Source of the DNA: Methanotrichaceae archaeon
GTDB lineage: Archaea; Halobacteriota; Methanosarcinia; Methanotrichales; Methanotrichaceae
Length of the DNA: 64,000 nt
NCBI GenBank assembly: GCA_963754945.1
Contig: CAVWIG010000028.1
Span: forward strand, 166,130-230,129
Reading direction: 5' to 3'
The translations under genes and the position numbers were made by a program. This document shows, piece after piece, positions 690 through 34,565 of this stretch. Under the pieces are notes generated by a model. It was given only the letters and a program-made list of their open reading frames with translations. It did no database searches and was not told where the DNA came from. Position 1 is the first letter of the stretch, and each line of letters opens with the position of its first letter.

Positions 690-1059
690 ATTTTTTGGGG
701 ATACTTACGCGCTTATCGAGCTTCTCAAGGGAAACCCTAACTACGAGGGCTATTCACGAGTAGGTCTGGTCACTACCGAATTCAACATTCTTGAGCTGAC
801 GTATGCCTTGTTTAGGGATTTCGGACGCAATGAGGCCGCAAATGTTATCGACTTTATAAGATTCAAGATCGAGGTTGTGCCTGCGGAGGACTCGGATTAC
901 CTGAATGCTTCCGAGTTCAGGCTATCCACAAATCGGACCGGAAAGAAGCTCTCCCTCGTGGACGCCCTTGGGTACTCGTATTCGAGAAAGCTCGGAATAA
1001 AATTTCTAACCGGAGACAAAGAGTTCAGCGGGATGGAAAACGTAGAGTACGTCAAGTAG
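682..1059 (+). CDS. vapC: PIN-domain VapC toxin
   Basis: FGDTYALIE N-terminal Asp, LSLVDALGY and FLTGDKEF PIN motifs; directly follows the antitoxin. Confidence 0.85.
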   Translation: MARFFGDTYALIELLKGNPNYEGYSRVGLVTTEFNILELTYALFRDFGRNEAANVIDFIRFKIEVVPAEDSDYLNASEFRLSTNRTGKKLSLVDALGYSYSRKLGIKFLTGDKEFSGMENVEYVK

Positions 1060-1080
1060 GGAACCAGAGGAGTTCTCAGT

Positions 1081-1884
1081 ATGTCGCTTTTCGCTCAACG
1101 ACTGAATGCCAACTCATCGGATCGGGGTACCATAGTATTTTTGCATGGCGGTGGAATAAGCGGCTGGTCATGGCGTCCGGTGGCCGAGCTTTTGACAGAA
1201 TTTGAAAGCCTGATTGTCGATTTGCCCGGACACGGGCAAAGTATTGGAATCGGGCCATTTACTATGAAACTGGCTGCCAATGAGGTTTCAAAAATCATTA
1301 ATGAGCGAACTTCTGGAGGCGCGCATGTCGTCGGGCTTTCGCTTGGCGCGCAGGTGATAATCCAATTGCTGGCCACGAATCCGGAAATCATCAAGAGCGC
1401 TTTTGTGAGCGGCTGTTCCGTTCGGCCGATTCCGATAGTCGGCAATTATCATTTCTTGAGAGCGTTATTCAGCGCCTATGCGCCATTCCGGAACATGCGC
1501 TGGCTGGTCCGAATGAACGCCCGCGCCATGGGAGTTCCAGAAGCGTATGAAAACGATTTTGCGAAAGATACTTGGTTGATGGTTCCGGCGAGCCTTGCCC
1601 GCATAGTTGCCGAAAGTCAATCCTTCATAATTCCGAAGGAGTGGGAAGGAGTTGCAACGCGCACGTTCGTCGCCTTTGGTGAAAAAGAATTGGATTCGGT
1701 CAAAAAATCAGCAACCGACCTGGCCCAGGCGCTGCCGAATTCAACCGCTTACAAGGTTATCGGTAGAAACCATGCTTGGCCAATCCAATATCCGCAACTC
1801 TGCGCCGATGCCATTCGCGCATTCTTGAGCGGTGGCGTTATCCCGGAACAATTTGTCGGTATGACGCGGATTAGCAGTACATAA
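1081..1884 (+). CDS. Alpha/beta-fold hydrolase
   Basis: FLHGGG, DLPGHG, GLSLG nucleophile elbow, C-terminal His (RNHAW). Confidence 0.85.
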   Translation: MSLFAQRLNANSSDRGTIVFLHGGGISGWSWRPVAELLTEFESLIVDLPGHGQSIGIGPFTMKLAANEVSKIINERTSGGAHVVGLSLGAQVIIQLLATNPEIIKSAFVSGCSVRPIPIVGNYHFLRALFSAYAPFRNMRWLVRMNARAMGVPEAYENDFAKDTWLMVPASLARIVAESQSFIIPKEWEGVATRTFVAFGEKELDSVKKSATDLAQALPNSTAYKVIGRNHAWPIQYPQLCADAIRAFLSGGVIPEQFVGMTRISST

Positions 1885-1988: not shown

Positions 1989-3011
1989 TTGACCTTGAGC
2001 ATGTGCGAGTCCAGGACCATCTGGTGGGACGACGGCTTGTGGCTGATCGATCAGACAAGGCTTCCCGTTGAGCTTCGGCCGATCAAGATTGAAAGCGTGA
2101 AAGGTCTGATCGAAGCCATAACAAGCCTTCGGGTCAGGGGTGCCCCGGCCCTGGGCGCTGCCGGAGCTTACGGGATCGCCCTGGCTGCACAGCTCTCGTC
2201 CACTGATAACCCGTTCCAGCTTCTTCAAGAGCTGGAGATGGCTGGGGAGATCATCAAGAAGTCCAGGCCAACAGCGGTCAACCTCTCCTGGGGGGTGGAC
2301 AGAGCTCTGAGGTCCGTTATGGTCCAGGATACAGCCGAGGGAATCAGGGAGGCAGCACTTCGCGAAGCGGAGCTAATCGCCGACGAGGACATCGCCATCA
2401 ACAAGACGCTAGGCAGGAAAGGAGCACTTCTCCTGGACGATGGAGACAGTGTCCTGACACACTGCAACGCAGGCAGGCTGGCCTGTGTGGGTTGGGGAAC
2501 AGCTCTAGGAGTCATCCGGTCTGCGGTCGAGGCTGGCAAGGAGATTCACGTCTATGCTTGCGAGACCAGGCCCCTGAACCAGGGGTCGAGGCTGACCGCC
2601 TGGGAACTGGTCCATGAGGGAATAGACGTGACACTGATCTGCGAGAGCGCCTCGGGAAGCCTCATGAGAAAGGGAAGGATCGATAAAGCAATCGTAGGCG
2701 CTGACAGGATAACCAAAGATGTTGTCTTCAACAAGATTGGAACCTACAATCACGCTGTCCTGGCCAAAGCCCACAAGCTGCCTTTCTATGTCGCGGCCCC
2801 TCTATCCACTTTCGACCTTGGGCACTGTGAGGCTGACATCACCATTGAAGAAAGAGGCGCTGAGGAGCTGTGCTCTGTTGGAGGAGTCCAGCTTGCTCCG
2901 ACGAGCGTAGACACATACAACCCTGCCTTTGACGCTACGCCGCTTAATCTTGTAACGGCGCTGATTACTGAAAAGGGCATCTTCAGGCCGCCGCTGATGC
3001 CGCCTGTTTGA
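1989..3011 (+). CDS. mtnA: S-methyl-5-thioribose-1-phosphate isomerase (eIF2B-like family); true start may be ATG 2001
   Basis: IDQTRLP, VRGAPALG, RPTAVNL, LTHCNAG, ETRPLNQGSRLTAWEL, GADRI, NPAFDATP motifs. Confidence 0.9.
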   Translation: MTLSMCESRTIWWDDGLWLIDQTRLPVELRPIKIESVKGLIEAITSLRVRGAPALGAAGAYGIALAAQLSSTDNPFQLLQELEMAGEIIKKSRPTAVNLSWGVDRALRSVMVQDTAEGIREAALREAELIADEDIAINKTLGRKGALLLDDGDSVLTHCNAGRLACVGWGTALGVIRSAVEAGKEIHVYACETRPLNQGSRLTAWELVHEGIDVTLICESASGSLMRKGRIDKAIVGADRITKDVVFNKIGTYNHAVLAKAHKLPFYVAAPLSTFDLGHCEADITIEERGAEELCSVGGVQLAPTSVDTYNPAFDATPLNLVTALITEKGIFRPPLMPPV

Positions 3012-3073
3012 TGCCCATTACTGCTGTCCCCTCAATCGATCAAGTGTAACTCAGATAGCGCTAGTCTTATTGG

Positions 3074-3188
3074 TTCCAATTTATCCGGATTCCAGTTGTC
3101 TAGACTCCAGTTATACCCCTGTTATAGAAGCCTAGTTATCTAGATTCCAAATATCCAGGATGTATTGTTTTACGGTCTAGATTCTCTT
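3074..3188. repeat. Degenerate ~15-bp tandem repeat (consensus ttccagttatctaga)
   Basis: Units such as ttccaatttatccgga, ttccagttgtctaga, ctccagttatacc, tagttatctaga and ttccaaatatccagga in the mtnA-TPR intergenic region. Confidence 0.5.
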
Positions 3189-3288
3189 TTTTCTCGTGAA
3201 GAATTTAAATGGTAATTAACCTATCGATAATTATCTTAGAATCAAACTATTCAAAAACTTTATAAAGATATAAGTTAGTTCATATTCC

Positions 3289-5709
3289 ATGAATCAACTG
3301 GTTGTTCTTCAAGAGATATACGAGTCGTTCTCAAAGGGTGGGGAGGGACTTAACACCATCGATCCGGAGTCGATCGAAGGGAGCTGCTCCGTCCAGGTTG
3401 CCCAACTCTTGGAAGGCTCTAAGCAGGGGAAGATAGATGCCGACCTCTGCTCAACTCTTGCCGACTGTCTCCAGGATGTTTACGAAGTGAAGAGATTGGG
3501 AGATATCTGCAAAAAGGCGGGACTTTTAGAACTGGCTATAAGATGCTATGACCGAGCACTATCAACTACCGGGGATAAGGGCGTGAAGGCGGTGCTTCTT
3601 AACAACCTAGGCCAGGTTTATGCTCAGTACGGTGATCTGGGAAGGGCTGTTGCATACTACAGGAAAGCAGTCAAGCGTTTCGAATGCATAGGAGACCGAA
3701 GCGGCATGGCCCACGTTCAGGGGAACCTGGGTTCCGCCTACAGAAGGGCCCACGAATGGGATAAGGCCATTGAGTACTGCTACAAAAGCCTGAGAGCCTT
3801 CGAGGATCTGGGAGACGAGCTTGGAGCTGCCCAGATGACGGGTAGCCTTGGCAGAGTCTACGCAGAGATGGGCGAGTCAGAGCTCGCCGCCAGGTATTTC
3901 GAGAAGAGTTTGAAGGCCTTCCAGAAGCAGGGGGATAGGAGAAGTGAGGCCTGGGTCCTTAATCGACTCGGTAGGAGCAGCGCCGATCAGAGCTTAGATG
4001 CCCCAATAAAATACTATAACCAGAGCCTGTCCATCTTCGAAGACCTAGGCCAGAGTCAAGGCTCTGGAATAGTTCTATCAAATCTTGGCCGAGCTTATCT
4101 CGACAAGGGCGAGGCTTCTTTAGCCAGGGACTGCCTCGAGCGATCATTGAAGATCTTGCGAAAGAAGACAAAGCCTGCGTACTGCAATGCATCGGCATGG
4201 CTGGCAGCGGCCTACAGCTCTTTGGCAAAGGAGAACCAGGTAAAAGCAAACACCACTTCATCAGTAGTAGTAATCGAAGGAGACAAGAAGAAAGATGAGC
4301 TTCTCAGGCTGGCCTCCCAGTACTATTCGAGGGCAGCAGATCGCTACCGTGATCTTATAGGTACATCTAGAACCGAGCTTACTGACATTGGCATGGCCGG
4401 AAGCGTTGCAGCTCTGCTGTCAATGCTTTCAGAGCTTCAGGCCGAGCACACAGACGAGGAGGCTGTCAAAATTGCCGATAGAGCCATCTCGAATCTGGAA
4501 GAGATGGCAAGAAATGATGGCAAGGAGACCGAACAGATTGAGGCTATCAAGAGGACTCTGACCGGAATGAGAGAGGTGTGGTCCCAGGGACTGCCCAATA
4601 AGGAGCCCTGGAAGCTAGCCAGGTCGATTACCGATTCTATAGAATACTTTATGGGAGGATTGTCTCTCCAAGGAGAGGCAGGCATTTGCATCTGCGACGC
4701 ACTGAGGAGCTTCAAGTGTGCCATCGAGGAAGAGCAACAAAGGAAAAATCCAACCGAGCTGCTCAAGGCCACAGCATCCCTGCTGAGACAGGCAGAGAAG
4801 AGATTCAGGTCAGACAGCATCGACCTAGAATGCGAGAGCGCGACTTGGTTAGGGAATACAGCGACTCTTATAGACCGTCTGATCAGCGCTGAGGCTGATC
4901 CAGTCAAGACAGTCTCTTTCAACATCAACGAGCTGCTCAACTACAGAACGCACAGAAAAGCGATCCTGCAAATCGGTTGGGTGTTGGTGGTGAATGCTCT
5001 ACCAGCTATAGACAAGACCGGTTACGTCTACTCCTGGGATGAATCGATGAACCTGGTGGAGAATAGACCTGCAGGACAACTTCAACAAGGGGCTGCATCA
5101 AAGGCCCAACAAATGCAGGAGAAGCCAATCCCAGACTCAGATACCCTTCAGGGAGATGATGCCTTCGACGAAGTGGAGGGTGAGACCATAATCGAATGTA
5201 CATCGGAAACGGATGGAATGAACGAGCGGAACACTATTTTGGAGATGGATGCTGAAAGGGCTCTATTTGCGGATGGGCCAGTTGTTGAAGTAATTCCAGA
5301 AGGTGGTAGTCTGGTTCCGACAACGTCAAATCTTGTGTACGCTCCACGCGACGCCCGGGTCTTGGTTCAGCGCAGCGAGAAGCCAGCAAGGGTCAGTGGA
5401 GCCTACCACTTCGATCCCGGATCTGATGCAATAAGCCTCGGAGGAAGAAACTCCAGGTCAGCCGAAGTGATCAATCGTTCGTCTAATGCCACACGAGGCC
5501 ACTTAAGCGAGTTCGAAGAACCCGTCAGGGTCAGAGCAGCGTGGGAGAGCCCGAACTTTTCAGCTTCTTCAGCGATGGGAAATGCAGAAAGACGATACGC
5601 CTTCGGCAATGGACTCTTCACAAGGTCCAATGTCATCAATTTGGTAAAGGCTTTAGCTGTTGTTGTGCTTTCGCTCCTGGCTATAGATGTAATACTATAT
5701 TTGATATAG
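3289..5709 (+). CDS. Tetratricopeptide-repeat protein with C-terminal membrane anchor
   Basis: Multiple TPR units (LNNLGQVY...A..YY.KA; GNLGSAY; SNLGRAY), acidic low-complexity linker, terminal hydrophobic helix ALAVVVLSLLAIDVILYLI. Confidence 0.85.
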   Translation: MNQLVVLQEIYESFSKGGEGLNTIDPESIEGSCSVQVAQLLEGSKQGKIDADLCSTLADCLQDVYEVKRLGDICKKAGLLELAIRCYDRALSTTGDKGVKAVLLNNLGQVYAQYGDLGRAVAYYRKAVKRFECIGDRSGMAHVQGNLGSAYRRAHEWDKAIEYCYKSLRAFEDLGDELGAAQMTGSLGRVYAEMGESELAARYFEKSLKAFQKQGDRRSEAWVLNRLGRSSADQSLDAPIKYYNQSLSIFEDLGQSQGSGIVLSNLGRAYLDKGEASLARDCLERSLKILRKKTKPAYCNASAWLAAAYSSLAKENQVKANTTSSVVVIEGDKKKDELLRLASQYYSRAADRYRDLIGTSRTELTDIGMAGSVAALLSMLSELQAEHTDEEAVKIADRAISNLEEMARNDGKETEQIEAIKRTLTGMREVWSQGLPNKEPWKLARSITDSIEYFMGGLSLQGEAGICICDALRSFKCAIEEEQQRKNPTELLKATASLLRQAEKRFRSDSIDLECESATWLGNTATLIDRLISAEADPVKTVSFNINELLNYRTHRKAILQIGWVLVVNALPAIDKTGYVYSWDESMNLVENRPAGQLQQGAASKAQQMQEKPIPDSDTLQGDDAFDEVEGETIIECTSETDGMNERNTILEMDAERALFADGPVVEVIPEGGSLVPTTSNLVYAPRDARVLVQRSEKPARVSGAYHFDPGSDAISLGGRNSRSAEVINRSSNATRGHLSEFEEPVRVRAAWESPNFSASSAMGNAERRYAFGNGLFTRSNVINLVKALAVVVLSLLAIDVILYLI

Positions 5710-8317: not shown

Positions 8318-10027
8318 TCATGCCGTCTTCATCTTCGCCACTTCCTCCAGGCCCAGATCTTTGATGGATTCCTCTCTCATCTTGTACTTCTGAATCTTGC
8401 CTGTGACCGTCATGGGGAAATCAGCAACGAACTTGATGTATTTTGGAATCTTGAAGTGGGCTATTTTGCCTTTACAGAACTCTTTTATCTCATCCGGGGT
8501 TGCACTTGCTCCCTGCTTAAGCTTGATCCAGGCCATCAGCTCTTCGCCGTACTTCAAGTCCGGCACGCCTATGACCTGAACATCGCTGATAGCAGGATGG
8601 GTGTAGAGGAACTCCTCGACCTCTCTCGGATAGACATTTTCGCCTCCCCTGATGACCATGTCCTTCAAGCGGCCTGTGATTTTGCAGTAGTCCTCATCGT
8701 CCAGGGTTCCGAGGTCTCCTGTGTGCAGCCAGCCCTCTTTGTCTATTGCCTGATCCGTAGCTACAGGATTGTTGTAGTAACAGCGCATGATCATGTAGCC
8801 ACGGGCGCATATCTCGCCGGTCTCGCCCCGGGGGACCATCTTGCCGGTCTTTGGATCCACTATCTTGACCTCTGTGTGGGGCAGCGGCCTGCCGATAGTG
8901 GAAACCCTTCTATCGATCGAATCATCCGTGGAAGAGTTGGTGATTCCAGGAGAGGCCTCGGTCTGTCCATAGGTTATCACTACCTCCTTCATGTTCATGA
9001 GAGTGGCCGCTTTTTTCATGAACTCGATGGGACACGGCGATCCTGCCATGATGCCTGTTCGTAGAGTGCTGAAGTCGAATTTGCTGAAATCGGGGTGTTC
9101 AAGCTGGGCGACAAACATGGTTGGCACACCGTGCACGGCTGTGCAACGCTCTTTTTCGATTGCCCACATTGTCGATTTCGGGTCAAAATACTCTGCAGGC
9201 AGGACCATAGTCGCGCCGTGGGTCACACAGGCCATGTTGGACAGAACCATACCGAAGCAGTGGTAGAAGGGAACCGGTATGCAGAGCCGGTCCTTCTCTG
9301 TGAACTTCATGCACTCTCCTATGAAGTAGCCGTTGTTCACCAGGTTGTGATGGGTGAGGACGACTCCTTTTGGAAATCCGGTTGTCCCCGAGGTGTACTG
9401 GATGTTCACAGGATCGTCGAAGTCCAGGTTCTCCTGGATGTCGAGTAGTAAATCGTCGGGCATCTCTTCTCCCATCGCCATGACTTCGTCCCAGGAGTAC
9501 ATTCCCGGCTGCTTTTCGCCGCGAACGAGAATTGCCGTCCTCAAGAAGGGCAGCTTCTCAGAGTGAATTTGACCAGGCTTGCTCTCCTTTGCTTCGGGAC
9601 AGACCTCGTAGAACATCTTGACATAGTCCGATGTCTTGAATCGATCCATCAGCAGAAGTCCTTGGGCCTCCGATTGCCTGAGGGCATACTCCAGCTCGTG
9701 GGTCCTTGAGGCAGGGTTGACGTTCACGAGAATTATTCCCGCTTTCGCCGTGGCGAACTGGGTGACGACCCATTCCGCTATATTGGTGGCCCATATTGCC
9801 AGTCGATCGCCTTTTTTGAGCCCCAAGCCGACGAATCCCTTGGCGGCCCTGTCGACCTCGCGTTGAAGCTGCCGATACGTGTATCGGATGCCCTGGTGAA
9901 GCGAGACAATTGCATCGTTTTCAGGGTAGGTTTCCGCAATTTCATCGAACATATCGCCGATGGTCTTTCCAATAAGTGGTTTCTCTGAACCCCGAAACGC
10001 ATAGCTGCGGGAGACTTTGACTGGCAT
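8318..10027 (-). CDS. Acyl-CoA synthetase / AMP-binding protein
   Basis: YTSGTTGFPKG, YGQTE, LHTGDLG, GRLKDMVIRGGEN, TGKIQK. Confidence 0.92.
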   Translation of the reverse strand: MPVKVSRSYAFRGSEKPLIGKTIGDMFDEIAETYPENDAIVSLHQGIRYTYRQLQREVDRAAKGFVGLGLKKGDRLAIWATNIAEWVVTQFATAKAGIILVNVNPASRTHELEYALRQSEAQGLLLMDRFKTSDYVKMFYEVCPEAKESKPGQIHSEKLPFLRTAILVRGEKQPGMYSWDEVMAMGEEMPDDLLLDIQENLDFDDPVNIQYTSGTTGFPKGVVLTHHNLVNNGYFIGECMKFTEKDRLCIPVPFYHCFGMVLSNMACVTHGATMVLPAEYFDPKSTMWAIEKERCTAVHGVPTMFVAQLEHPDFSKFDFSTLRTGIMAGSPCPIEFMKKAATLMNMKEVVITYGQTEASPGITNSSTDDSIDRRVSTIGRPLPHTEVKIVDPKTGKMVPRGETGEICARGYMIMRCYYNNPVATDQAIDKEGWLHTGDLGTLDDEDYCKITGRLKDMVIRGGENVYPREVEEFLYTHPAISDVQVIGVPDLKYGEELMAWIKLKQGASATPDEIKEFCKGKIAHFKIPKYIKFVADFPMTVTGKIQKYKMREESIKDLGLEEVAKMKTA

Positions 10028-17644: not shown

Positions 17645-19231
17645 CTACAGGGATTTGGCCATGTAAGGTGATCTGAGAGCATACCCGAGGCGCTCATAAT
17701 AAGCACGAGCTCCTATTCCACTGGTGATCTCCAGCGATGCATAGCCCGCGCTCCTGGCAATCTCCTCTGCGGCCTCGACTAACCTTGCTCCATAGCCCTG
17801 ATGCTGCCAGCCGCCTTTTCTGGTCCCGATGGGCACCATGGGACCGTAGATGTGCAGCTCTCTTATCCTTGCAGCCTGGCCAAGTCGGAGGCGCAAGAAC
17901 CCCACAAGAGTGTCGTCCTCCCCGTCGAAGGACAGGAAATGCTCGTCTGCTCCGCACGCCCCATATGTCTCGTGATTCATTTCCAATTCGCCTTCATGGA
18001 CTCCTCGGAGACCTGCCTCTCGACAGCGTATGCACTGACATTTCTTGCCTCGATCTCTCAGTCTATAGCCAGCAAGCTGGCGAAGGTTGGACTTCCTCAC
18101 GCCAGCGACTATCAGATGTGCTGGTATGTCCCTTTGCACCCTCTGAAGCCGAACATACCTGGGTAGCAGCTCCTTAACCCTGGAGACCAAATCGGCAGCC
18201 TCTTCGCTCTCAAGAGGGCTGTATTCGCCCCTCTGGTACATCCTATGCAGCTCGGTTCCCTCTATCACCAGTGTAGGGTATATCTTGAGGTAATCCGGGC
18301 GAAAGCTGCTGCTATCGAACAGCTCTTCGAAGACATCCAGATCAACCTCAGGCGAAGACCCGGGAAGCCCTGGCATCATGTGGAACCCTACTTTGATGCC
18401 GGCCTCTCTGAGGGCTGTGTTGGCCTGTACTACATCATCCACACTGTGACCGCGATTTATAGTCTCCAGAATTCGATCTCTGGTGCTCTGCACCCCGAGC
18501 TCGACCTTGGTGGCCCCCAGAGCGAGCATACCATCTATCTGCTCTGGCCCACACCAGTCCGGCCTTGTCTCGAAGGTGGTGCCTATGTTCTTCACGGCAG
18601 CGTTTCGATTGGCCTCGGCGACATCCTCGAAGGAACTCCATTCTGGGCCGTGACAATTACCTTCTTGTTCGTTACCCTTCAATCTGAGATCTCGCCGGGA
18701 ATAGTCGTTCATCGCCTGCAGGCAGCGCTTGACGAACCAGTGCTGGTAGCCCAGGGGCCTGGAGGTAATGGTTCCTCCCATGATTATCAGCTCGGCCTTG
18801 TCCAAGGGGTGGCCTATCTCATAAAGCTGGCTCAATCTCGCCATGACCTGATCGTATGGATCGAAGTCATGCTGGGCTGCGCGCATGGCCGCTGGCTCTC
18901 TGCCTGTGTAGCTCTGTGGCGATGTGGCCTCACAACCCACTCCTCCGGGGCATGGGACACAGACTCCATGAGGGCACCTGGCAGGGGAGGTCATGGCGGC
19001 TATCACAGCCACACCCGAGAGGGTCCTGGTGGGCTTACGCACCAGCATCTTGAGCCGCTCCCGCTCTTTCGCCGTTGCAAATCCCAGGATGTCGGCATTG
19101 CTTGGCAAAGAGGCAAGACCAAGCTTCTCCGAAAGCCCCTTTTTCATAGACTCCAGCCCGGCTGGAGTGCTGACGGTTCCCGAGAGGATGGCGTCTACTA
19201 TTCCTCTCAGTTCTGTGCTCACTCTATCCAA
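17645..19231 (-). CDS. elp3: tRNA uridine(34) acetyltransferase Elp3 (radical SAM + GNAT)
   Basis: KPTRTLSGVAV, CPHGVCVPCPGG, ETRPDW, RVQRDIP, RELHIYG, WQHQGYG. Confidence 0.95.
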   Translation of the reverse strand: MDRVSTELRGIVDAILSGTVSTPAGLESMKKGLSEKLGLASLPSNADILGFATAKERERLKMLVRKPTRTLSGVAVIAAMTSPARCPHGVCVPCPGGVGCEATSPQSYTGREPAAMRAAQHDFDPYDQVMARLSQLYEIGHPLDKAELIIMGGTITSRPLGYQHWFVKRCLQAMNDYSRRDLRLKGNEQEGNCHGPEWSSFEDVAEANRNAAVKNIGTTFETRPDWCGPEQIDGMLALGATKVELGVQSTRDRILETINRGHSVDDVVQANTALREAGIKVGFHMMPGLPGSSPEVDLDVFEELFDSSSFRPDYLKIYPTLVIEGTELHRMYQRGEYSPLESEEAADLVSRVKELLPRYVRLQRVQRDIPAHLIVAGVRKSNLRQLAGYRLRDRGKKCQCIRCREAGLRGVHEGELEMNHETYGACGADEHFLSFDGEDDTLVGFLRLRLGQAARIRELHIYGPMVPIGTRKGGWQHQGYGARLVEAAEEIARSAGYASLEITSGIGARAYYERLGYALRSPYMAKSL

Positions 19232-19734
19232 CTTACGACCTCATCCAGGTTCCTGGCTGGCGGAGCATGCGGGCTCTCCGCTGGCCAGCCTATGGAAAGA
19301 ATGGCTACCGGCAGCACATCTTTGGCCAGATTCAGGGCATCTCTGACTATCTGATCGTCAAAGGCCCCGTTCCAACAGGCCCCCAGGCTCAGATCGTATG
19401 CAGCCAGGAGCAGGCACATAGTCGCCGCTGCAGCATCCTGTATCGAATAAAGGCTTCCGCGATCTCCGTAACGTCTGCTCGATCGAGGGACATCCGCACA
19501 GATCACGACCAGCAGAGGCGCAGTCTCCACCTGACTCTGACCGTAGGCGGCCACTGCCAAAGTCTTTCTCATTTGGGTGTTGGTCACGACAACATATTTC
19601 CTGGCTCGAAGATTTCCTGCGGACGGAGCAGTCTCAGCCGCTTTGATAAGATCGAGAATAAGATCCTTGGAGACAGGATCTTCCTTATAGCTCCTCATCG
19701 ACCTTCGCCCTTCAAGGGCATCCATCAGATTCAT
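19219..19734 (-). CDS. Nitroreductase family protein
   Basis: RRSMRSY, APSAGNL, LGACWNGAF. Confidence 0.9.
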   Translation of the reverse strand: MNLMDALEGRRSMRSYKEDPVSKDLILDLIKAAETAPSAGNLRARKYVVVTNTQMRKTLAVAAYGQSQVETAPLLVVICADVPRSSRRYGDRGSLYSIQDAAAATMCLLLAAYDLSLGACWNGAFDDQIVRDALNLAKDVLPVAILSIGWPAESPHAPPARNLDEVVSWIE

Positions 19735-19775
19735 CGTCTAAAGAATAGTGTCCCCATTGGATAAGAAATTGCTTG

Positions 19776-20714
19776 CTAATTATAATCGTGCGTGAACAAG
19801 GGCTCCTGTCTACCAAGCTGTCTTACTGTCACACAGTCGTCATCGATGACTATATAGGTGTCCGGCGACTTCTCATTGTTTCCATTTCGCCTCTCGGAGG
19901 TGAGGCTTCCTGCATTGACCGCTAATGGACCATCATCGCGTCTGTATATGCCTGCCTTATGAGTGTCCCCGTAGACGAAGCAGTCCACCTTCCCAACCCG
20001 CTGATTCTTCAGGAACTCCAGTATGGCATCGTACTGTCTCTCGACAGGGGCGTATTTCCTCCGAATCCCATTATTCATCTTGTTGAAGATACAGGATACC
20101 TTCCATAGCTTCTGCTCGAACTCCACCATCTCTCCGATGTAGCTGGACCTGTACATCCCTTCGTAGGCGTAGGCCATCATCATCTCCAGGTCGGCTGGCG
20201 AGATTTCCTCGCCGGAGAGCTTCCTTAGCTGCTCTACTAACTGGATGGAAAAAGCCTGGACACCTTTTAAATGGTGGCCGTGAGTGAACAGGTAGTTCCT
20301 ATGGTAGCAGCTTGCCTTGTAGATGGGGTAGTACATGTCAACGTTCAGGCCGTCAAGGGTCTGGTTCCAGTTGAGGTTGGGAGTGTAGACAGAATAGATG
20401 TCTCCTCTGGCCACCCTTTCCAGAAAATCCATCTCCTGGCTCATCACCGCCAGGTGATGATCATGATTTCCCACAACATAACTTATCTTCACATCCAGCT
20501 CTGACAGCCTCTCAAATAAATACCTGGAGTCCCGCAACGCTCTCTCCGGCCTGGCCCTCCACAGGTCGAAGATGTCTCCCAGGAGGACGATCTCTCCACA
20601 GCCTTTCCCGTACTTCCATACCTCCCATATCAGGCAATCGACCAGCTTATGATCGGTAAGAGTGGATGAGCTTAGACCAAAGTGAGTATCTGACAATACC
20701 AGGATTGAAGCCAT
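19776..20714 (-). CDS. Calcineurin-like metallophosphoesterase
   Basis: LSDTHFG, LLGDIFDLW, VGNHDH, THGH, GDTH motifs. Confidence 0.85.
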   Translation of the reverse strand: MASILVLSDTHFGLSSSTLTDHKLVDCLIWEVWKYGKGCGEIVLLGDIFDLWRARPERALRDSRYLFERLSELDVKISYVVGNHDHHLAVMSQEMDFLERVARGDIYSVYTPNLNWNQTLDGLNVDMYYPIYKASCYHRNYLFTHGHHLKGVQAFSIQLVEQLRKLSGEEISPADLEMMMAYAYEGMYRSSYIGEMVEFEQKLWKVSCIFNKMNNGIRRKYAPVERQYDAILEFLKNQRVGKVDCFVYGDTHKAGIYRRDDGPLAVNAGSLTSERRNGNNEKSPDTYIVIDDDCVTVRQLGRQEPLFTHDYN

Positions 20715-31001: not shown

Positions 31002-31299
31002 TGGTTCTGACCTCACCAAGTAGTCTTGAAAAATCTTTACTACCCACGTTTCCAACACATGAGACGAATTCTTGATTATTAGACATATGACCCATTATCT
31101 CCCCATCATAAGATCGGCTGATAGTATCGAATCTGGATTTAGGGGCCCTTTTGATATATAAACCCCGTGTAGAGAGCTTCGTCCTGGTTTCAGTGGAGGG
31201 GAAGCTTTCAAGATGGATAATCTTAAACGTCTCGAAGCTAATTTCAGCTCAAGAACTTCACCGGCAAGAATTCACAAGAACAGTTTTCAGAGGGATGAA

Positions 31300-32331
31300 A
31301 TGGATCAAGGTCATGGCTTCATGTGCAATAGCGAGAAGATAAGGACTACGATACCGGTTAAGGACCGGAACGTGTCAGATCTGGTAAAGGACATGGGATG
31401 CATGGGGTTTCAGGGAGGGCAGCTAGGGGCATCCCTGCGAGTATGGGAACGCATGCTTGACGAGGATGTGACTATCTTCCTAGGACTAGCAGGAGCGATG
31501 GTTCCAGCCGGATTGGGCGAGTTCATAGCCTATCTAATTCGGGAGCGCCTTGTAGACTGCCTTGTCAGCACCGGAGCAAACCTCTTTCACGACCTATGCG
31601 AGGGCCTGGGGATAGTCCATTATCATGGAAGCGCTTGTGCAGATGACGCCTACTTGAATGAGTGCAAGATCGACAGGATCTATGACGTCTTCGTATCAGA
31701 GATAGAGCTGCACAAGGCCGACAATTACATATCCGACTTCGTGAAGGCTCTGAGCAGAGAGCGTCGCTACTCTTCGCGCGAGCTCATGCACATGGTGGGA
31801 AAGGATCTGCCAGACACAACGATACTTGGGGCTGCGCACAAAGCCAACGTGCCTATATTCGTTCCGGCTCTGGGAGATAGCTCCTGGGGAATAGGGATGG
31901 TCATGGCCTACCGTGAAGGCCAGAAGGTTATGGTTGATCAGATCAAGGACGTGGACGAGATCACGCAAATGGTAGAGAGATCCTCTAAAACCGGCGTGAT
32001 CTACATCGGCGGAGGCGTACCTAAGAACTTCATACAGCAGACAGAAGTGATAGCCGAGCTGATCGGCAACTACTCAGGCGGCCACAGCTATGCTATTCAG
32101 TACACCACAGATGCGCCGCACTGGGGAGGACTTTCTGGCTGCACTTTTGAGGAGGCAGTCTCCTGGGGCAAGGTGGCAAAGGAGGCGAGCAAGGTGCAGG
32201 TCTTCTCCGATGCCACTATAACTGTGCCTGTAGTAGTCCAGGCCTTGAAAGCCTCGGGCCATGGGCGAAAGAGTCATCCGGTTTATGATTGGACTGAGTC
32301 AGACCTGAAGCTCAAATATGAGAGAAGATGA
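31300..32331 (+). CDS. Deoxyhypusine synthase / SpeY-like homospermidine-biosynthesis protein
   Basis: STGANLFHD, IDRIYD, GGGVPKNF, GGLSGCTFEEAVSWGK (active-site Lys), SDATI. Confidence 0.88.
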   Translation: MDQGHGFMCNSEKIRTTIPVKDRNVSDLVKDMGCMGFQGGQLGASLRVWERMLDEDVTIFLGLAGAMVPAGLGEFIAYLIRERLVDCLVSTGANLFHDLCEGLGIVHYHGSACADDAYLNECKIDRIYDVFVSEIELHKADNYISDFVKALSRERRYSSRELMHMVGKDLPDTTILGAAHKANVPIFVPALGDSSWGIGMVMAYREGQKVMVDQIKDVDEITQMVERSSKTGVIYIGGGVPKNFIQQTEVIAELIGNYSGGHSYAIQYTTDAPHWGGLSGCTFEEAVSWGKVAKEASKVQVFSDATITVPVVVQALKASGHGRKSHPVYDWTESDLKLKYERR

Positions 32332-32557
32332 GCATTCAAAATATGAGAGAATGATGCGAGAATATGAGCGTATTCAAAACCGCCATATTCTCGATGCATA
32401 ATTTTTGTGCGCTCTCTTACGCTACTGATTGATGACTGTTCCTTGAGCCTAGAATAACAAATCAAGACCCCTTTTTGCGCTGAAACCTCTCGAGAAGACG
32501 GCTAACAGAAAAGAATCAATGGAAGGTAGCTGATTTCTGAAAATGCGTAGTTGTGCA

Positions 32558-32632
32558 TGGGGCCGGGACCGGGATTCGAACCCAGCTCGAGGGATCCACA
32601 GTCCCTCAGGATAACCACTACCCTATCCCGGC
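32558..32632 (-). tRNA. tRNA-His (GTG), CCA encoded
   Basis: GCCGGGA/TCCCGGC acceptor stem, AGGGA-CT-GTG-GA-TCCCT anticodon arm, GGTTCGAATCC, C discriminator followed by CCA. Confidence 0.95.
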
Positions 32633-32884
32633 GCGCCAGGGTTTTGACTCACTGCTGAGAGATAAAACTTTCCCCGTCCGCGTAGGACCAATTTGCTACT
32701 TTCCATGGATTACAGGGTTACCAAATGTTTATGCAACGACACAACCAGGAAGCGCGGAGATATCCACCAGCCGGTGTCAGACGAATTCAGTTTGTCATCG
32801 ATAGATGAACTCAACTATCTTTTCCTTACACAATTTAGGAATCTGATATTGATTCATGTCTGAACCTGAGTATCGGGAAATGAA

Positions 32885-32948
32885 ATGAGAAAAGGAGGGA
32901 TAGCAAAAGTCAGTGATGTAGGAGGGATATGGTGACCGACTTTTGCCT
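32885..32948 (-). ncRNA. Candidate sRNA copy 1 (hairpin with anti-SD-like loop)
   Basis: 13-bp stem GGCAAAAGUCGGU/ACUGACUUUUGCU, loop contains UCCCUCCUAC, tail AUCCCUCCUUUU; BRE-TATA CGAAAAC-TTTATAAT at 32985-32971. Confidence 0.6.
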
Positions 32949-33162
32949 TGTGCTATTACGTCACTTGCCGATTATAAAGTTTTCGGTTAAGGCGATCAGC
33001 GTACTTAGCATCAGCATTTGGGATCGATTGTTTTCTCAAGAATATAAAAGCAAAGCTAGATGTTAGGGGTTGTTTTGACTTTTCAGATGTAGCACTAAAG
33101 GAGGCGAATATCCCACAGTGGCCCTCGAAAAATCACCTTTGAGAACTCCAAAATCCAATAAT

Positions 33163-33224
33163 GAATAAGAGGGAGGCAAAAGTCTGTGGTGTAGGAGGGA
33201 GAAAATAGATATCGACTTTTACCT
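33163..33224 (-). ncRNA. Candidate sRNA copy 2
   Basis: Stem AGGUAAAAGUC/GACUUUUGCCU, loop contains UCCCUCCUAC, tail CCCUCUUAUU; BRE-TATA CGAAAGA-TTTATATC at 33260-33246. Confidence 0.6.
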
Positions 33225-33332
33225 AATCTTAGTACGGCATATGACGATATAAATCTTTCGGTAAGTATGCAAGAAAGCATAAGCTCGCAAATTTCCTGAA
33301 GGATTAATCAGTTGCAGACATCATTCATGGAT

Positions 33333-33395
33333 ATGAAAAGGAGGGGGAGCAAAAGTCAGGGAACGTAGAAGGATGATTATGATTGCCTTTTGCCT
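33333..33395 (-). ncRNA. Candidate sRNA copy 3
   Basis: Stem GGCAAAAGGCA/UGACUUUUGCU, loop contains UCCUUCUAC, tail CCCCCUCCUUUU; BRE-TATA CGAAAAC-TATATATT at 33433-33419. Confidence 0.55.
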
Positions 33396-33623
33396 GTGGA
33401 TAGTTACGGCGTTAAACGAATATATAGTTTTCGCCAATCGACGTACATAGATATCAGACAGCCATAGAAGGACAGATATCCACAACAGTAATATTGACAG
33501 AGACACAAAGAACAATATGTTTATGAGAACCATAGGCGGCCTTCTTCGACGCCTCGGCTTTTCGGAGTGGCCGGGAATAGCGACATGAAAAAAGAACCAT
33601 TAAATTGAGCGGACGCTAGTGAA

Positions 33624-34565
33624 ATGATGATTTACACCATTACCCTCAACCCTGCCCTGGACAGGACCATCTGGATTGATAGAATAAGGGACGATGTGTC
33701 CAATCGCATCATCGATGAACGGAGATACGCGGGGGGCAAGAGCATAGACGTCTCCAAGGTGTTGAAGAACTTCGGCGTAGACAACATCGCCCTCGGGTTT
33801 GTTGGCGGGTTCGCGGGAAGGGAGCTGGAGGGCAGGTTGCTCAACGATGGGATACAGACAAACTTTGTTCGTGTCTCAGGTGAGACCCGTACCAACATCA
33901 TAATACATGAAAAAGAGACCGGCAGACAACTCGCCTTCAACGCCCTTGGTCCTGAGATTCGTCCCAGCGAGCTGATGCAGCTCGTAGAGCAGATAGAGCT
34001 TCTTCCCTGTCCAGATGTTGTGACCATAGGAGGCAGCCTGCCACCCGGCGTCAGCCCTGAGATCTACCGCAAGATAATAATGTTGGTCGGCAGATGTCGA
34101 GCCCGTGTTGTCCTGGACGTGGATGGCCCTGGCCTCCTTTCTGGTATCAAGGCCCATCCCAACATCATCAAGCCAAACATTCACGAACTTAGTGAGCTGG
34201 TGGGGCACGATCTGAAGGAGATGAACGAGATAGTCGAAGCGGCCAGGCAGATAAACAGGGATGGTGTGGAGGTTGTCTTAGTTTCCATGGGCGCAAAGGG
34301 GATTCTGCTTGTTGCTAAGGGAGTTGAATGCGTCGCTATACCTCCTGAGGTAAAGGTGGAGAACACCATTGGTGCAGGGGACTCGGCGGTGGCAGGGTTC
34401 GTCTACGGCCTGGTCAACGGCAAAGACCTGAAGGAGTCACTTGTTCTTGCTGCCGCCGCAGGGACGGCTACGACTTTGCGTTTGGGAACCGCGTTGTCCA
34501 AGAAAGAGGATTTCCTCAATCTGGTTCCCCAGGTTAGGCTTAACGTATTGCAGGGCGGTGCTTGA
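33624..34565 (+). CDS. pfkB: 1-phosphofructokinase-family (PfkB) hexose kinase
   Basis: YTITLNPALD, GGKSIDVS, IKPNIHEL, NTIGAGDS. Confidence 0.9.
   Translation: MMIYTITLNPALDRTIWIDRIRDDVSNRIIDERRYAGGKSIDVSKVLKNFGVDNIALGFVGGFAGRELEGRLLNDGIQTNFVRVSGETRTNIIIHEKETGRQLAFNALGPEIRPSELMQLVEQIELLPCPDVVTIGGSLPPGVSPEIYRKIIMLVGRCRARVVLDVDGPGLLSGIKAHPNIIKPNIHELSELVGHDLKEMNEIVEAARQINRDGVEVVLVSMGAKGILLVAKGVECVAIPPEVKVENTIGAGDSAVAGFVYGLVNGKDLKESLVLAAAAGTATTLRLGTALSKKEDFLNLVPQVRLNVLQGGA

Follow-up and report, generated by a model that had tools for sequence, protein, structure and literature searches.

A 64,000-nt stretch from a Methanotrichaceae archaeon (assembly GCA_963754945.1, contig CAVWIG010000028.1, positions 166,130 to 230,129), hereafter called the window, carries three short units of common architecture on its minus strand, between a tRNA gene and a kinase gene. 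Each unit looks like a promoter followed by a gene for a small hairpin RNA, and the three belong to a multicopy family of putative small RNA (sRNA) genes. The downstream flank of the array is the gene for tRNA-His(GTG) (32558..32632, minus strand), which was found by ARAGORN and scored 56.3 bits as an Rfam tRNA. On the other side lies a gene for a PfkB-family kinase (33624..34565, plus strand; Pfam PF00294, E 2e-52), which is divergent from the array and marks the syntenic locus. The same two flanks had been named in a first-pass annotation of this DNA, and these searches bore both of them out. Beyond tRNA-His lies a deoxyhypusine synthase gene (31213-32331, plus strand; PF01916, E 5e-100), whose homologue is found away from the sRNA array in other genera.

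Each unit begins with a transcription factor B recognition element (BRE), (C/G)CGAAA, and a TATA box (TTTATAAT, TTTATATC or TATATATT), followed by approximately 23 nt that are partly conserved and include CGTA. The stem, GG(C/U)AAAAG(U/G)C ... GACUUUUGC(C/U), closes a loop of 26-29 nt. The loop contains UCCCUCCUAC in copies 1 and 2 and UCCUUCUAC in copy 3, and a second CCCUC(C) is present in the CU-rich tail of each unit. The three units aligned with a mean column identity of 76%. The arm pattern occurred three times in the window, and not once in 100 shuffles. The BRE and TATA box, stem, loop and tail that had been claimed for the units were all present on the minus strand.

The promoter of copy 1 (32948..32986, minus strand, as are all features of the units) consists of the BRE CCGAAA (32981-32986), the TATA box TTTATAAT (32971-32978) and a conserved promoter-proximal element (CGGCAAGTGACGTAAT...) that runs to the predicted start. 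The predicted RNA (32887..32947) has the 5' arm GGCAAAAGUC (32938-32947), a loop (32912-32937) with AUCCCUCCUACAUCA, the 3' arm GACUUUUGCU (32902-32911) and the tail AUCCCUCCUUUUCUC (32887-32901), its 3' end being uncertain. Copy 2 has its promoter at 33224..33261, with the BRE CCGAAA at 33256-33261, the TATA box TTTATATC at 33246-33253 and the promoter-proximal element behind them. Its predicted RNA (33157..33223) is composed of the 5' arm GGUAAAAGUC (33214-33223), which contains a U·G wobble, the loop at 33185-33213 (UCUCCCUCCUACACC), the 3' arm GACUUUUGCC (33175-33184) and the tail UCCCUCUUAUUCAUUAUU. The promoter of copy 3 (33395..33434) has the BRE GCGAAAA at about 33428-33434 and the TATA box TATATATT at 33419-33426, again with the promoter-proximal element. 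The 5' arm of its predicted RNA (33333..33394), GGCAAAAGGC (33385-33394), carries one G-A mismatch, the loop (33358-33384) contains a degenerate motif, AUCCUUCUAC, and the 3' arm GACUUUUGCU (33348-33357) is followed by the tail CCCCCUCCUUUUCAU. Copy 3 is the weakest of the three.

The units are not confined to the window. The whole assembly (2.97 Mb in 54 contigs, 87.7% complete) was searched with the hairpin pattern, which gave 17 forward and 19 reverse matches on 13 contigs, versus 0 and 0 in the control. When the 21 loci were oriented with the pyrimidine-rich loop as the sense strand, the same BRE and TATA box were present upstream and the same tail downstream. All-against-all BLAST of the paralogues placed the homology within about -45 to +65 of the stem start, which corresponds to the promoter and the RNA. 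Single stem arms elsewhere in the genome occurred at chance frequency, without hairpin or promoter. A covariance model (CM) built from the 21 copies found 23 copies in the genome, including those of the window with 59.8 bits for copy 1, 65.8 bits for copy 2 and 49.3 bits for copy 3. The claim of paralogous, promoter-bearing and strand-defined genes for small hairpin RNAs was sustained.

The first-pass annotation had staked its proposal on homologues in related genomes. The CM found the RNA in every one of the 24 genomes sampled first from this family, and in all 74 Methanotrichaceae genomes of a class-wide sample, with 1-20 copies each, often in tandem; the relatives together hold hundreds of copies. 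One genome per prokaryotic species was also scanned for the exact pattern, which yielded 108 stretches. The 80 stretches listed were titled Methanotrichaceae, Methanothrix, Methanosaeta, Methanosarcinales metagenome-assembled genome or Ca. Methanocrinis, except for one 'uncultured archaeon'. One copy per genome was also found in 28 of the 67 genomes of another taxonomic family, f3, mostly in three genera (8/9, 16/17 and 3/6), in two of the four genomes of f4 and in both genomes of f5. The search of f2 (three genomes) gave no match. A weak hit in one of the 18 genomes of a large-genome genus (g21; genome G144) lacked a TATA box, had imperfect arms and was judged spurious.

The single-copy homologues in f3, f4 and f5 had the same promoter and the same stem, with a longer loop containing AUCCCCUC. 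Their presence in other families indicated that the RNA predates the Methanotrichaceae and was amplified there. Besides AUCCCCUC, a second loop motif, CCGUCAUA, CCGUUCAUA or CCGUCAAC, was seen in these homologues (L152:1501-1588 and L154:1501-1586, both plus strand; L267 in f4; L265 in f5). The own-genome paralogue C50:11057 and its counterparts in five other genera had a loop with ...CUCCCUCCUUUACCCUACAUCCAAUCG and a tail without CCUCC. From its sequence, this group looks like the orthologue of the ancestral single copy. A DUF2117 gene near the single-copy homologues in two genera was not informative.

Rfam 15, searched with positions 32300-33900 of the window (E up to 10), returned nothing besides tRNA-His and one sub-threshold match, which lay on that tRNA as well. 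One paralogue locus and two single-copy homologue loci gave no match at E up to 5. This agreed with the earlier statement that the units belong to no family already described in Rfam. Literature searches found no description of the family, of which the single-copy homologue may sit unnamed in published sRNA lists. On these Rfam and literature searches, we consider the family undescribed.

Folding of the minus strand gave -16.1 kcal/mol for copy 1 (z -5.7) and -13.0 kcal/mol for copy 2 (z -4.4), values that were reached by none of 200 shuffles in either case. The plus-strand folds of copies 1, 2 and 3 were no better than the shuffles (z -1.1, -0.3 and +0.1). A single hairpin appeared in every fold and in the consensus, and RNAalifold independently predicted the same helix.

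In the family as a whole, the stem is a near-invariant 10-bp helix, GGCAAAAGUC/GACUUUUGCC. Among the 21 own-genome copies, 99.0% of the stem cells paired, versus 36-60% when the partner columns were slid. Nine of the ten pairs varied on one side only, and none on both sides. Because the variation is one-sided, the support for the stem is the asymmetry of its wobbles rather than classical covariation. On the strand with the pyrimidine-rich loop, the 18 departures from the stem consensus amounted to 16 G·U or U·G wobbles and two mismatches; read on the opposite strand, 17 of them would be mismatches. This asymmetry was not built in, since the copies had been gathered by a search that made no difference between the strands. 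The argument by which the strand had been fixed, G·U pairs on one strand versus A·C mismatches on the other, was thus upheld over the genome. Pair-preserving changes were the only ones in the stem of copy 2 and its orthologue in a genome of the same genus, G002 (U·G to C-G and A-U to G·U). Two double changes were seen in relatives, an A-U closing pair in one of them and a C-G in place of the family's U-A in an f4 homologue.

The GGAGGG motifs on the plus strand might be read as true Shine-Dalgarno (SD) sequences of small protein genes. In copy 1, GGAGGGAUAUG is followed by an open reading frame (ORF) of 45 codons (32929-33066, plus strand), and a short ORF is present in copy 3 too. The stem substitutions, on the other hand, would be A·C mismatches on this strand. 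Among 138 members of the family from this and other genomes, 39 had no start behind the SD-like motif (the arm was not located in 4), and the 95 with a start were spread over the three frames (38/36/21), 58 of them encoding fewer than 20 residues. An indel puts copies 1 and 3 out of frame with each other, and copy 2 lacks a start. The scatter over all three frames agreed with the earlier observation that no reading frame is conserved, and we find small protein genes here scarcely credible. C/D box sRNAs were also considered and rejected, as none of the 23 own copies had both box motifs on either strand. The C-box motif alone was present in 0 of the 138 members on the sense strand and in 3 on the antisense strand.

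The geometry of the promoter was counted over the 135 members with enough flanking sequence. In 114 of them, the distance from the start of a TATA-like motif to the first G of the stem was 28-33 nt, and in 102 it was 30-32 nt; 17 had no TATA-like motif by regular expression. Of the 22 own copies shown, two (C39:9785 and C39:22772) had no recognisable promoter. The fixed distance places the start site at the first base of the stem or a few nucleotides before it. The sequence thus provided what is expected of a trans-encoded sRNA, a promoter of its own, in the form of a BRE and TATA box at a fixed distance.

The consensus from TATA to stem was TTtAattTCG.caAttG.cgta, and the element between TATA and start recurred in the single-copy homologues of other families. 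This sequence conservation suggests a common regulator, for which the element would be the binding site, or a special promoter class. The family-specific part of it (consensus TCG.caAttG.cgta) lies at 32948-32970, 33224-33245 and 33395-33418 of the window (minus strand), and is found across the family.

From these features we infer a transcript that starts at, or at most about 4 nt before, the first G of the stem (stem start GGCAAAAG). The predicted RNA would be about 60-85 nt long and would consist of the stem, a G-poor unstructured loop of 21-48 nt and a single-stranded CU-rich tail (typically CUCCCUCCUU...). A U-tract follows copies 1 and 3, and is weak family-wide. The 3' end is uncertain because the U-tracts are short.

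RNA data came from three peat metatranscriptomes, which held 5-12% of the sampled words and were used as contigs (X1 and X2 denote two of the runs). One X1 contig of about 450 nt, with a depth of 419, corresponded to 33169-33205 of the window, and its loose ends and flanks matched the paralogue at C17:245273-245340 of the own assembly (G000). The contigs on the neighbouring pfkB had depths of 24-36. The contig with a depth of 419 is compatible with high expression, and proves nothing.

The array is conserved in place. Two to four copies of the family lay beside the pfkB homologue in five genomes of four genera (G001, G002, G016, G017 and G019). In the comparison with G002, units 1, 2 and 3 were identical at 94/100, 89/99 and 85/104 positions, respectively, and the spacers at 56/74, 113/182 and 153/212 (62-76%). 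Units 1 and 2 thus stood at 94% and 90%, and the spacers on the two sides of unit 1 were 62-72% identical. The higher conservation of the units than of the spacers showed, at the level of sequence comparison, that the units are under selection.

In the congener G001 (L146:2820-3590, compared with 32620-33640 of the window), copies 2 and 1 have given way to a single chimeric unit. Its promoter and the 5' half of its loop are those of copy 2, the switch falls within the shared CCCUCC core, and the 3' half and the tail are those of copy 1. As judged from its sequence, this unit is the product of an unequal recombination that yielded a new, intact hairpin gene.

Dispersal, multiple copies, a palindromic core and a copy number that differs between genomes are also what a non-autonomous mobile element or a repeat of the repetitive extragenic palindromic type would show, in which case the palindrome would act at the DNA level and have no function as RNA. 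The recombinant unit in G001 and a transposase or integrase gene within 2.5 kb at 4 of 18 own loci would fit such an element. However, terminal inverted repeats and target-site duplications were the same as in shuffled controls (means 3.78 vs 3.76 and 3.78 vs 3.88), so that the first-pass annotation, which counted a match to the end of a miniature inverted-repeat transposable element or insertion sequence against itself, was not contradicted. Moreover, the array stands at the same locus in four genera, the promoter distance is fixed, the substitutions keep pairing on one strand only, and the neighbours are mostly housekeeping genes. The sole structural difference seen at the array was the unequal recombination between two units. 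A mobile repeat is therefore very improbable.

Cis-acting elements of neighbouring genes, that is, 5' leaders, orphan promoters or terminators, would be consistent with the same-strand ORFs 170-830 nt downstream of some copies, and with several metatranscriptome contigs that extend beyond the unit. At 7 of 16 own loci, though, the unit was convergent with the downstream ORF (at least 100 aa) or tRNA, and the distances ranged from 12 to about 880 nt. Homology and conservation ended at the tail, the spacers being the least conserved part, and the tandem units each had their own promoter. Synteny, conserved units, the absence of terminal inverted repeats and target-site duplications, and the mixed orientation downstream together argue against both a mobile element and 5' leaders, and we rate a cis-acting role as decidedly improbable.

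The loops and tails are rich in sequences complementary to ribosome-binding sites (RBSs). CCCUCC, CCUCCC or CCUCCU was present in 110 of the 138 loops and in 123 of the 138 tails, in a set for which 80 of the 99 source loci had been chosen with a pattern that contained the tail. Of the 23 copies in the own genome, 11 had these motifs in the loop and 16 had them in the tail. The fraction of G in the loops was 0.084. The 16S rRNA of this genome ends in GGAUCACCUCCU, and of 2619 long ORFs, 398 (~15%) had GGAGG at a distance of 3-11 nt ahead of a candidate start.

These numbers bear on the idea that the RNA mimics the 3' end of 16S rRNA. The hairpin with its anti-SD tail would then imitate helix 45 and the anti-SD sequence, and compete globally for mRNAs with an SD sequence or for factors that bind the 16S 3' end. 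The tail CUCCCUCCUU and several loops (GAUCACCU..., CACCUC...) do resemble the 16S end, and a high copy number would suit titration. However, the commonest motif, CCCUCC, pairs best with GGAGGG, which is the rarest of the four GGAGGN sequences at the predicted RBSs (70/398). Mimicry also leaves the variable halves of the loops and the subfamily-specific target described below unexplained. We regard it as improbable.

When the genome was searched with the reverse complement of each RNA, one match stood out, that of the paralogue at G000:C39:1705-1776 (blastn E 0.004). This paralogue lies outside the window and has the loop UUCGUUCCCAC. It formed an uninterrupted run of 21 pairs (20 of them Watson-Crick, the other G·U) with AGGAGGUGGGAACGAAAUGAG. 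This stretch comprises the SD sequence, the spacer and the first two codons, start codon included, of a gene for a 236-aa protein, which is present as two identical copies in tandem. Eight further pairs were formed with the upstream GAGGGUAU. The energy of the duplex was -45.8 kcal/mol, and the next unrelated window among 7155 start-site windows gave -27.9. As a null, the best of 23 reversed loops reached -36.2 and the best of 23 shuffled loops -39.4 kcal/mol. For all the other paralogues, the best predicted target was within the null range.

The two tandem genes are at G000:C18:10189-10896 and 8864-9571 (L157:2187-2897 and 862-1572, minus strand), outside the window. Their product has an N-terminal hydrophobic segment, is cysteine-rich and is predicted to be secreted. 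The protein family gave no match in Pfam, NCBIfam or PDB. It was present in all 15 Methanotrichaceae genomes searched, with 3-16 matches each and best matches of 73-94% identity, and in none of 10 genomes outside the Methanotrichaceae. The protein could be a component of the envelope or sheath.

The RBS of the 236-aa genes, GGAGGUGGGAAC(G/U)(A/G)AAUG, was kept across genera, while the sequence upstream of it diverged. Matching pairs of sRNA and RBS were compared with shuffled RBS windows. None of 300 was as good as the 21 pairs in G000 or the 14 Watson-Crick pairs in G015, and one of 300 was as good as the 14 pairs in G010. Loops complementary to this RBS were thus found in three genera, in three of the five genomes tested.

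Short complementary matches at ORF starts were also biased, with 78 in the target orientation versus 10 in the opposite one. After removal of 41 copies of repeat elements, the numbers were 37 versus 10. Other RBSs with (U)GUAGGAGG or GUGGGAGG belonged to unrelated genes without a functional theme, which included those for an M32 carboxypeptidase, a pentapeptide-repeat protein, an AAA protein and an S-layer protein. Two matches to repeat elements were rejected. In one, 13 nt of the copy 1 tail matched the RBS of an ORF of 375 aa that occurs 25 times; in the other, the loop of the C34 paralogue matched, over 13-14 nt, the sequence immediately ahead of an ORF of 146 aa that occurs 16 times. Chance alone would give matches as short as these, and repetition of the element only raises their number. 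The 375-aa ORF stands behind an identical leader in its 25 places (e.g. C28:133570-134697, minus strand), and the 146-aa ORF does so in 16 (e.g. C7:41864-42304, minus strand). Both are presumably genes of insertion sequences.

On balance, and with little more than even confidence, we interpret these units as members of a new archaeal multicopy sRNA family that most likely masks RBSs. The loop, and probably the tail as well, would be the antisense element. It would pair with purine-rich ribosome-binding regions of mRNAs, covering the SD sequence, the spacer and sometimes the start codon, and the pairing would block initiation or alter the stability of the mRNA. The tail would supply the anti-SD core together with the 3' half of the loop, which is conserved (CCCUCCUACA), and each paralogue would derive its own specificity from the variable 5' half of the loop. 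The stem would present the loop, and may double as a handle for a protein. Occlusion of RBSs had been proposed in the first-pass annotation for the window copies. It gained indirect support from one paralogue outside the window, with its conserved complementarity from SD to AUG, and gained none from the window copies, whose targets were no better than the controls.

A number of observations weigh against RBS masking, or against the transcript it presupposes. The best targets of the window copies, at -30.2, -27.8 and -25.9 kcal/mol, were inside the range of the reversed and shuffled loops, and only one sRNA-target pair beat the null. The leader of the DUF1646 genes, AUGUAGGAU.G.GAAA(A)GAGGUG, was the top target for six paralogues at -34 to -37.5 kcal/mol. 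It was rejected as not significant, in view of the -36.2 and -39.4 attained by reversed and shuffled loops. In two of the five genomes tested for the 236-aa genes, G009 and G006, which have only four and two copies of the family, no sRNA matched the RBS. The complement of the loop of the single-copy homologue puts AUG upstream of the G-rich stretch, which is not the layout of an RBS. Copy 3 folded on the minus strand with only -7.4 kcal/mol (z -0.9), and 45 of 200 shuffles did as well. This is explained by the G-A mismatch in its stem, which was absent from the first-pass account; the orthologues of copy 3 in G002 and G001 have an intact arm, GCAAAAGUCGA. The terminator signals are weak: of 136 members, 29 had TTTT no farther than 15 nt from the stem. 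The metatranscriptome contigs carry no transcript start, end or strand, and some run through the promoter, as do low-depth X2 contigs through that of copy 1. Lastly, target pairing does not explain a stem sequence that is invariant across four families.

The DUF1646 genes encode membrane proteins in tandem (G000:C8:17526-18611 and 18872-19957; L158:1027-2115 and 2373-3461, plus strand). Their leader mirrors the consensus loop of the sRNA, and is conserved in two genera.

The invariant stem is better accommodated if the RNA is bound by a protein, with the stem as a sequence-specific handle. The CCC and CCUCC motifs would then act as a sponge for a protein that binds C-rich RNA, or the RNA would guide a ribonucleoprotein. 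A protein sponge was the alternative named in the first-pass annotation, and the invariant stem strengthens it. Apart from wobbles, the stem stayed the same in more than 100 copies, drawn from 16 genera, and in the three other families, and the loops diverged; 80 of the 99 loci behind this set had been chosen by the exact stem pattern, and the unbiased evidence is that of the CM hits. Two or three CU-rich motifs per RNA and the want of a specific target above the null for most paralogues would also be consistent with a sponge, and a sponge is also considered for a bacterial analogue in the LhrC paper. On the other hand, no protein gene recurred in the neighbourhood of 18 own loci, and no candidate protein was identified. 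The complementarity of one subfamily to an RBS over 21 bp, kept in three genera, argues for RNA-RNA pairing at least there. We take a protein-bound RNA to be unlikely, though by no means far-fetched.

RBS masking and a protein handle could be parts of one programmable RNA-guide system, which we put forward tentatively as an unlikely, though not remote, possibility. In such a system, the invariant 10-bp handle would recruit a dedicated protein, and the exchangeable loop would pick the RBS to be silenced. The Methanotrichaceae would have expanded one ancestral guide to up to about 20, and new specificities would arise by divergence of the loop and by recombination within the CCCUCC core, as in the G001 chimera.

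In wetlands, rice fields and digesters, Methanothrix and related archaea rank among the chief producers of methane from acetate. Our literature searches found no paper on the small RNAs of this group, and no multicopy 'sibling' sRNA family in Archaea. According to a review, the mechanism is known for very few archaeal trans-acting sRNAs. The present family can be defined from the genome sequence alone, a covariance model for it exists, and one concrete candidate pair of sRNA and mRNA is at hand. Its stem, being too invariant for base pairing alone, points to an archaeal RNA-binding partner. Function could be tested through the single-copy homologues, as the genera that carry them are relatives of methanogens with tractable genetics.

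Among the known systems, the nearest is LhrC1-5 of Listeria monocytogenes. These are multicopy 'sibling' sRNAs of about 110 nt, four of them adjacent, with two stem-loops and a terminator hairpin. They block translation by binding of their CU-rich motifs to the SD region of the target mRNAs, which is G-rich. The present family shares with them the several homologous copies, the redundant CU-rich (UCCC-type) motifs in the loop and single-stranded stretches, and the scarcity of G. It differs in having one hairpin, an invariant stem, an archaeal promoter and up to 23 copies, and in being known from sequence only; there is no sequence relationship between the two.

The cuckoo RNAs of Alphaproteobacteria (RSs0680/CcsR, SmelA075/A099), to which the first-pass annotation had likened the units, have two to four adjacent hairpins with CCUCCUCCC in each loop, stems that vary freely by compensatory changes, and clusters of up to nine. 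An anti-SD-like C-rich loop motif, multiple copies, clustering and partly conserved neighbourhoods are common to both. The present RNAs, unlike these, have one hairpin, an invariant stem, loops that vary around CCCUCCUAC and an archaeal host. The likeness thus held as a loose analogy of multicopy RNAs with anti-SD loops, and failed in the pattern of conservation, the cuckoo RNAs showing the opposite one of variable stems and a fixed loop motif. Membership was rejected on the single hairpin, on loops with UCCCUCCUAC or UCCUUCUAC in place of CCUCCUCCC, and on the lack of any stem pair that varies on both sides.

Within the Archaea, sRNA154, sRNA41 and sRNA162 of Methanosarcina mazei are intergenic, and mask RBSs with anti-RBS loops or single-stranded parts. 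They resemble the present family in being archaeal (class Methanosarcinia) and intergenic and in having anti-RBS sequence, and differ in being described as single-copy RNAs of about 100 nt or more with several hairpins. The cold-induced sRNAs of Methanolobus psychrophilus are intergenic as well and have their own BRE/TATA promoters, and several are conserved. The single-copy homologue of the present family occurs in genera of the family to which M. psychrophilus belongs. The 'cold box' of the M. psychrophilus sRNAs lies upstream of the promoter, whereas the shared element found here lies between TATA and the start site. By analogy, the present family would work like LhrC1-5 and, more loosely, like the cuckoo RNAs, sRNA154 and sRNA41, and appears as a member of none of them.

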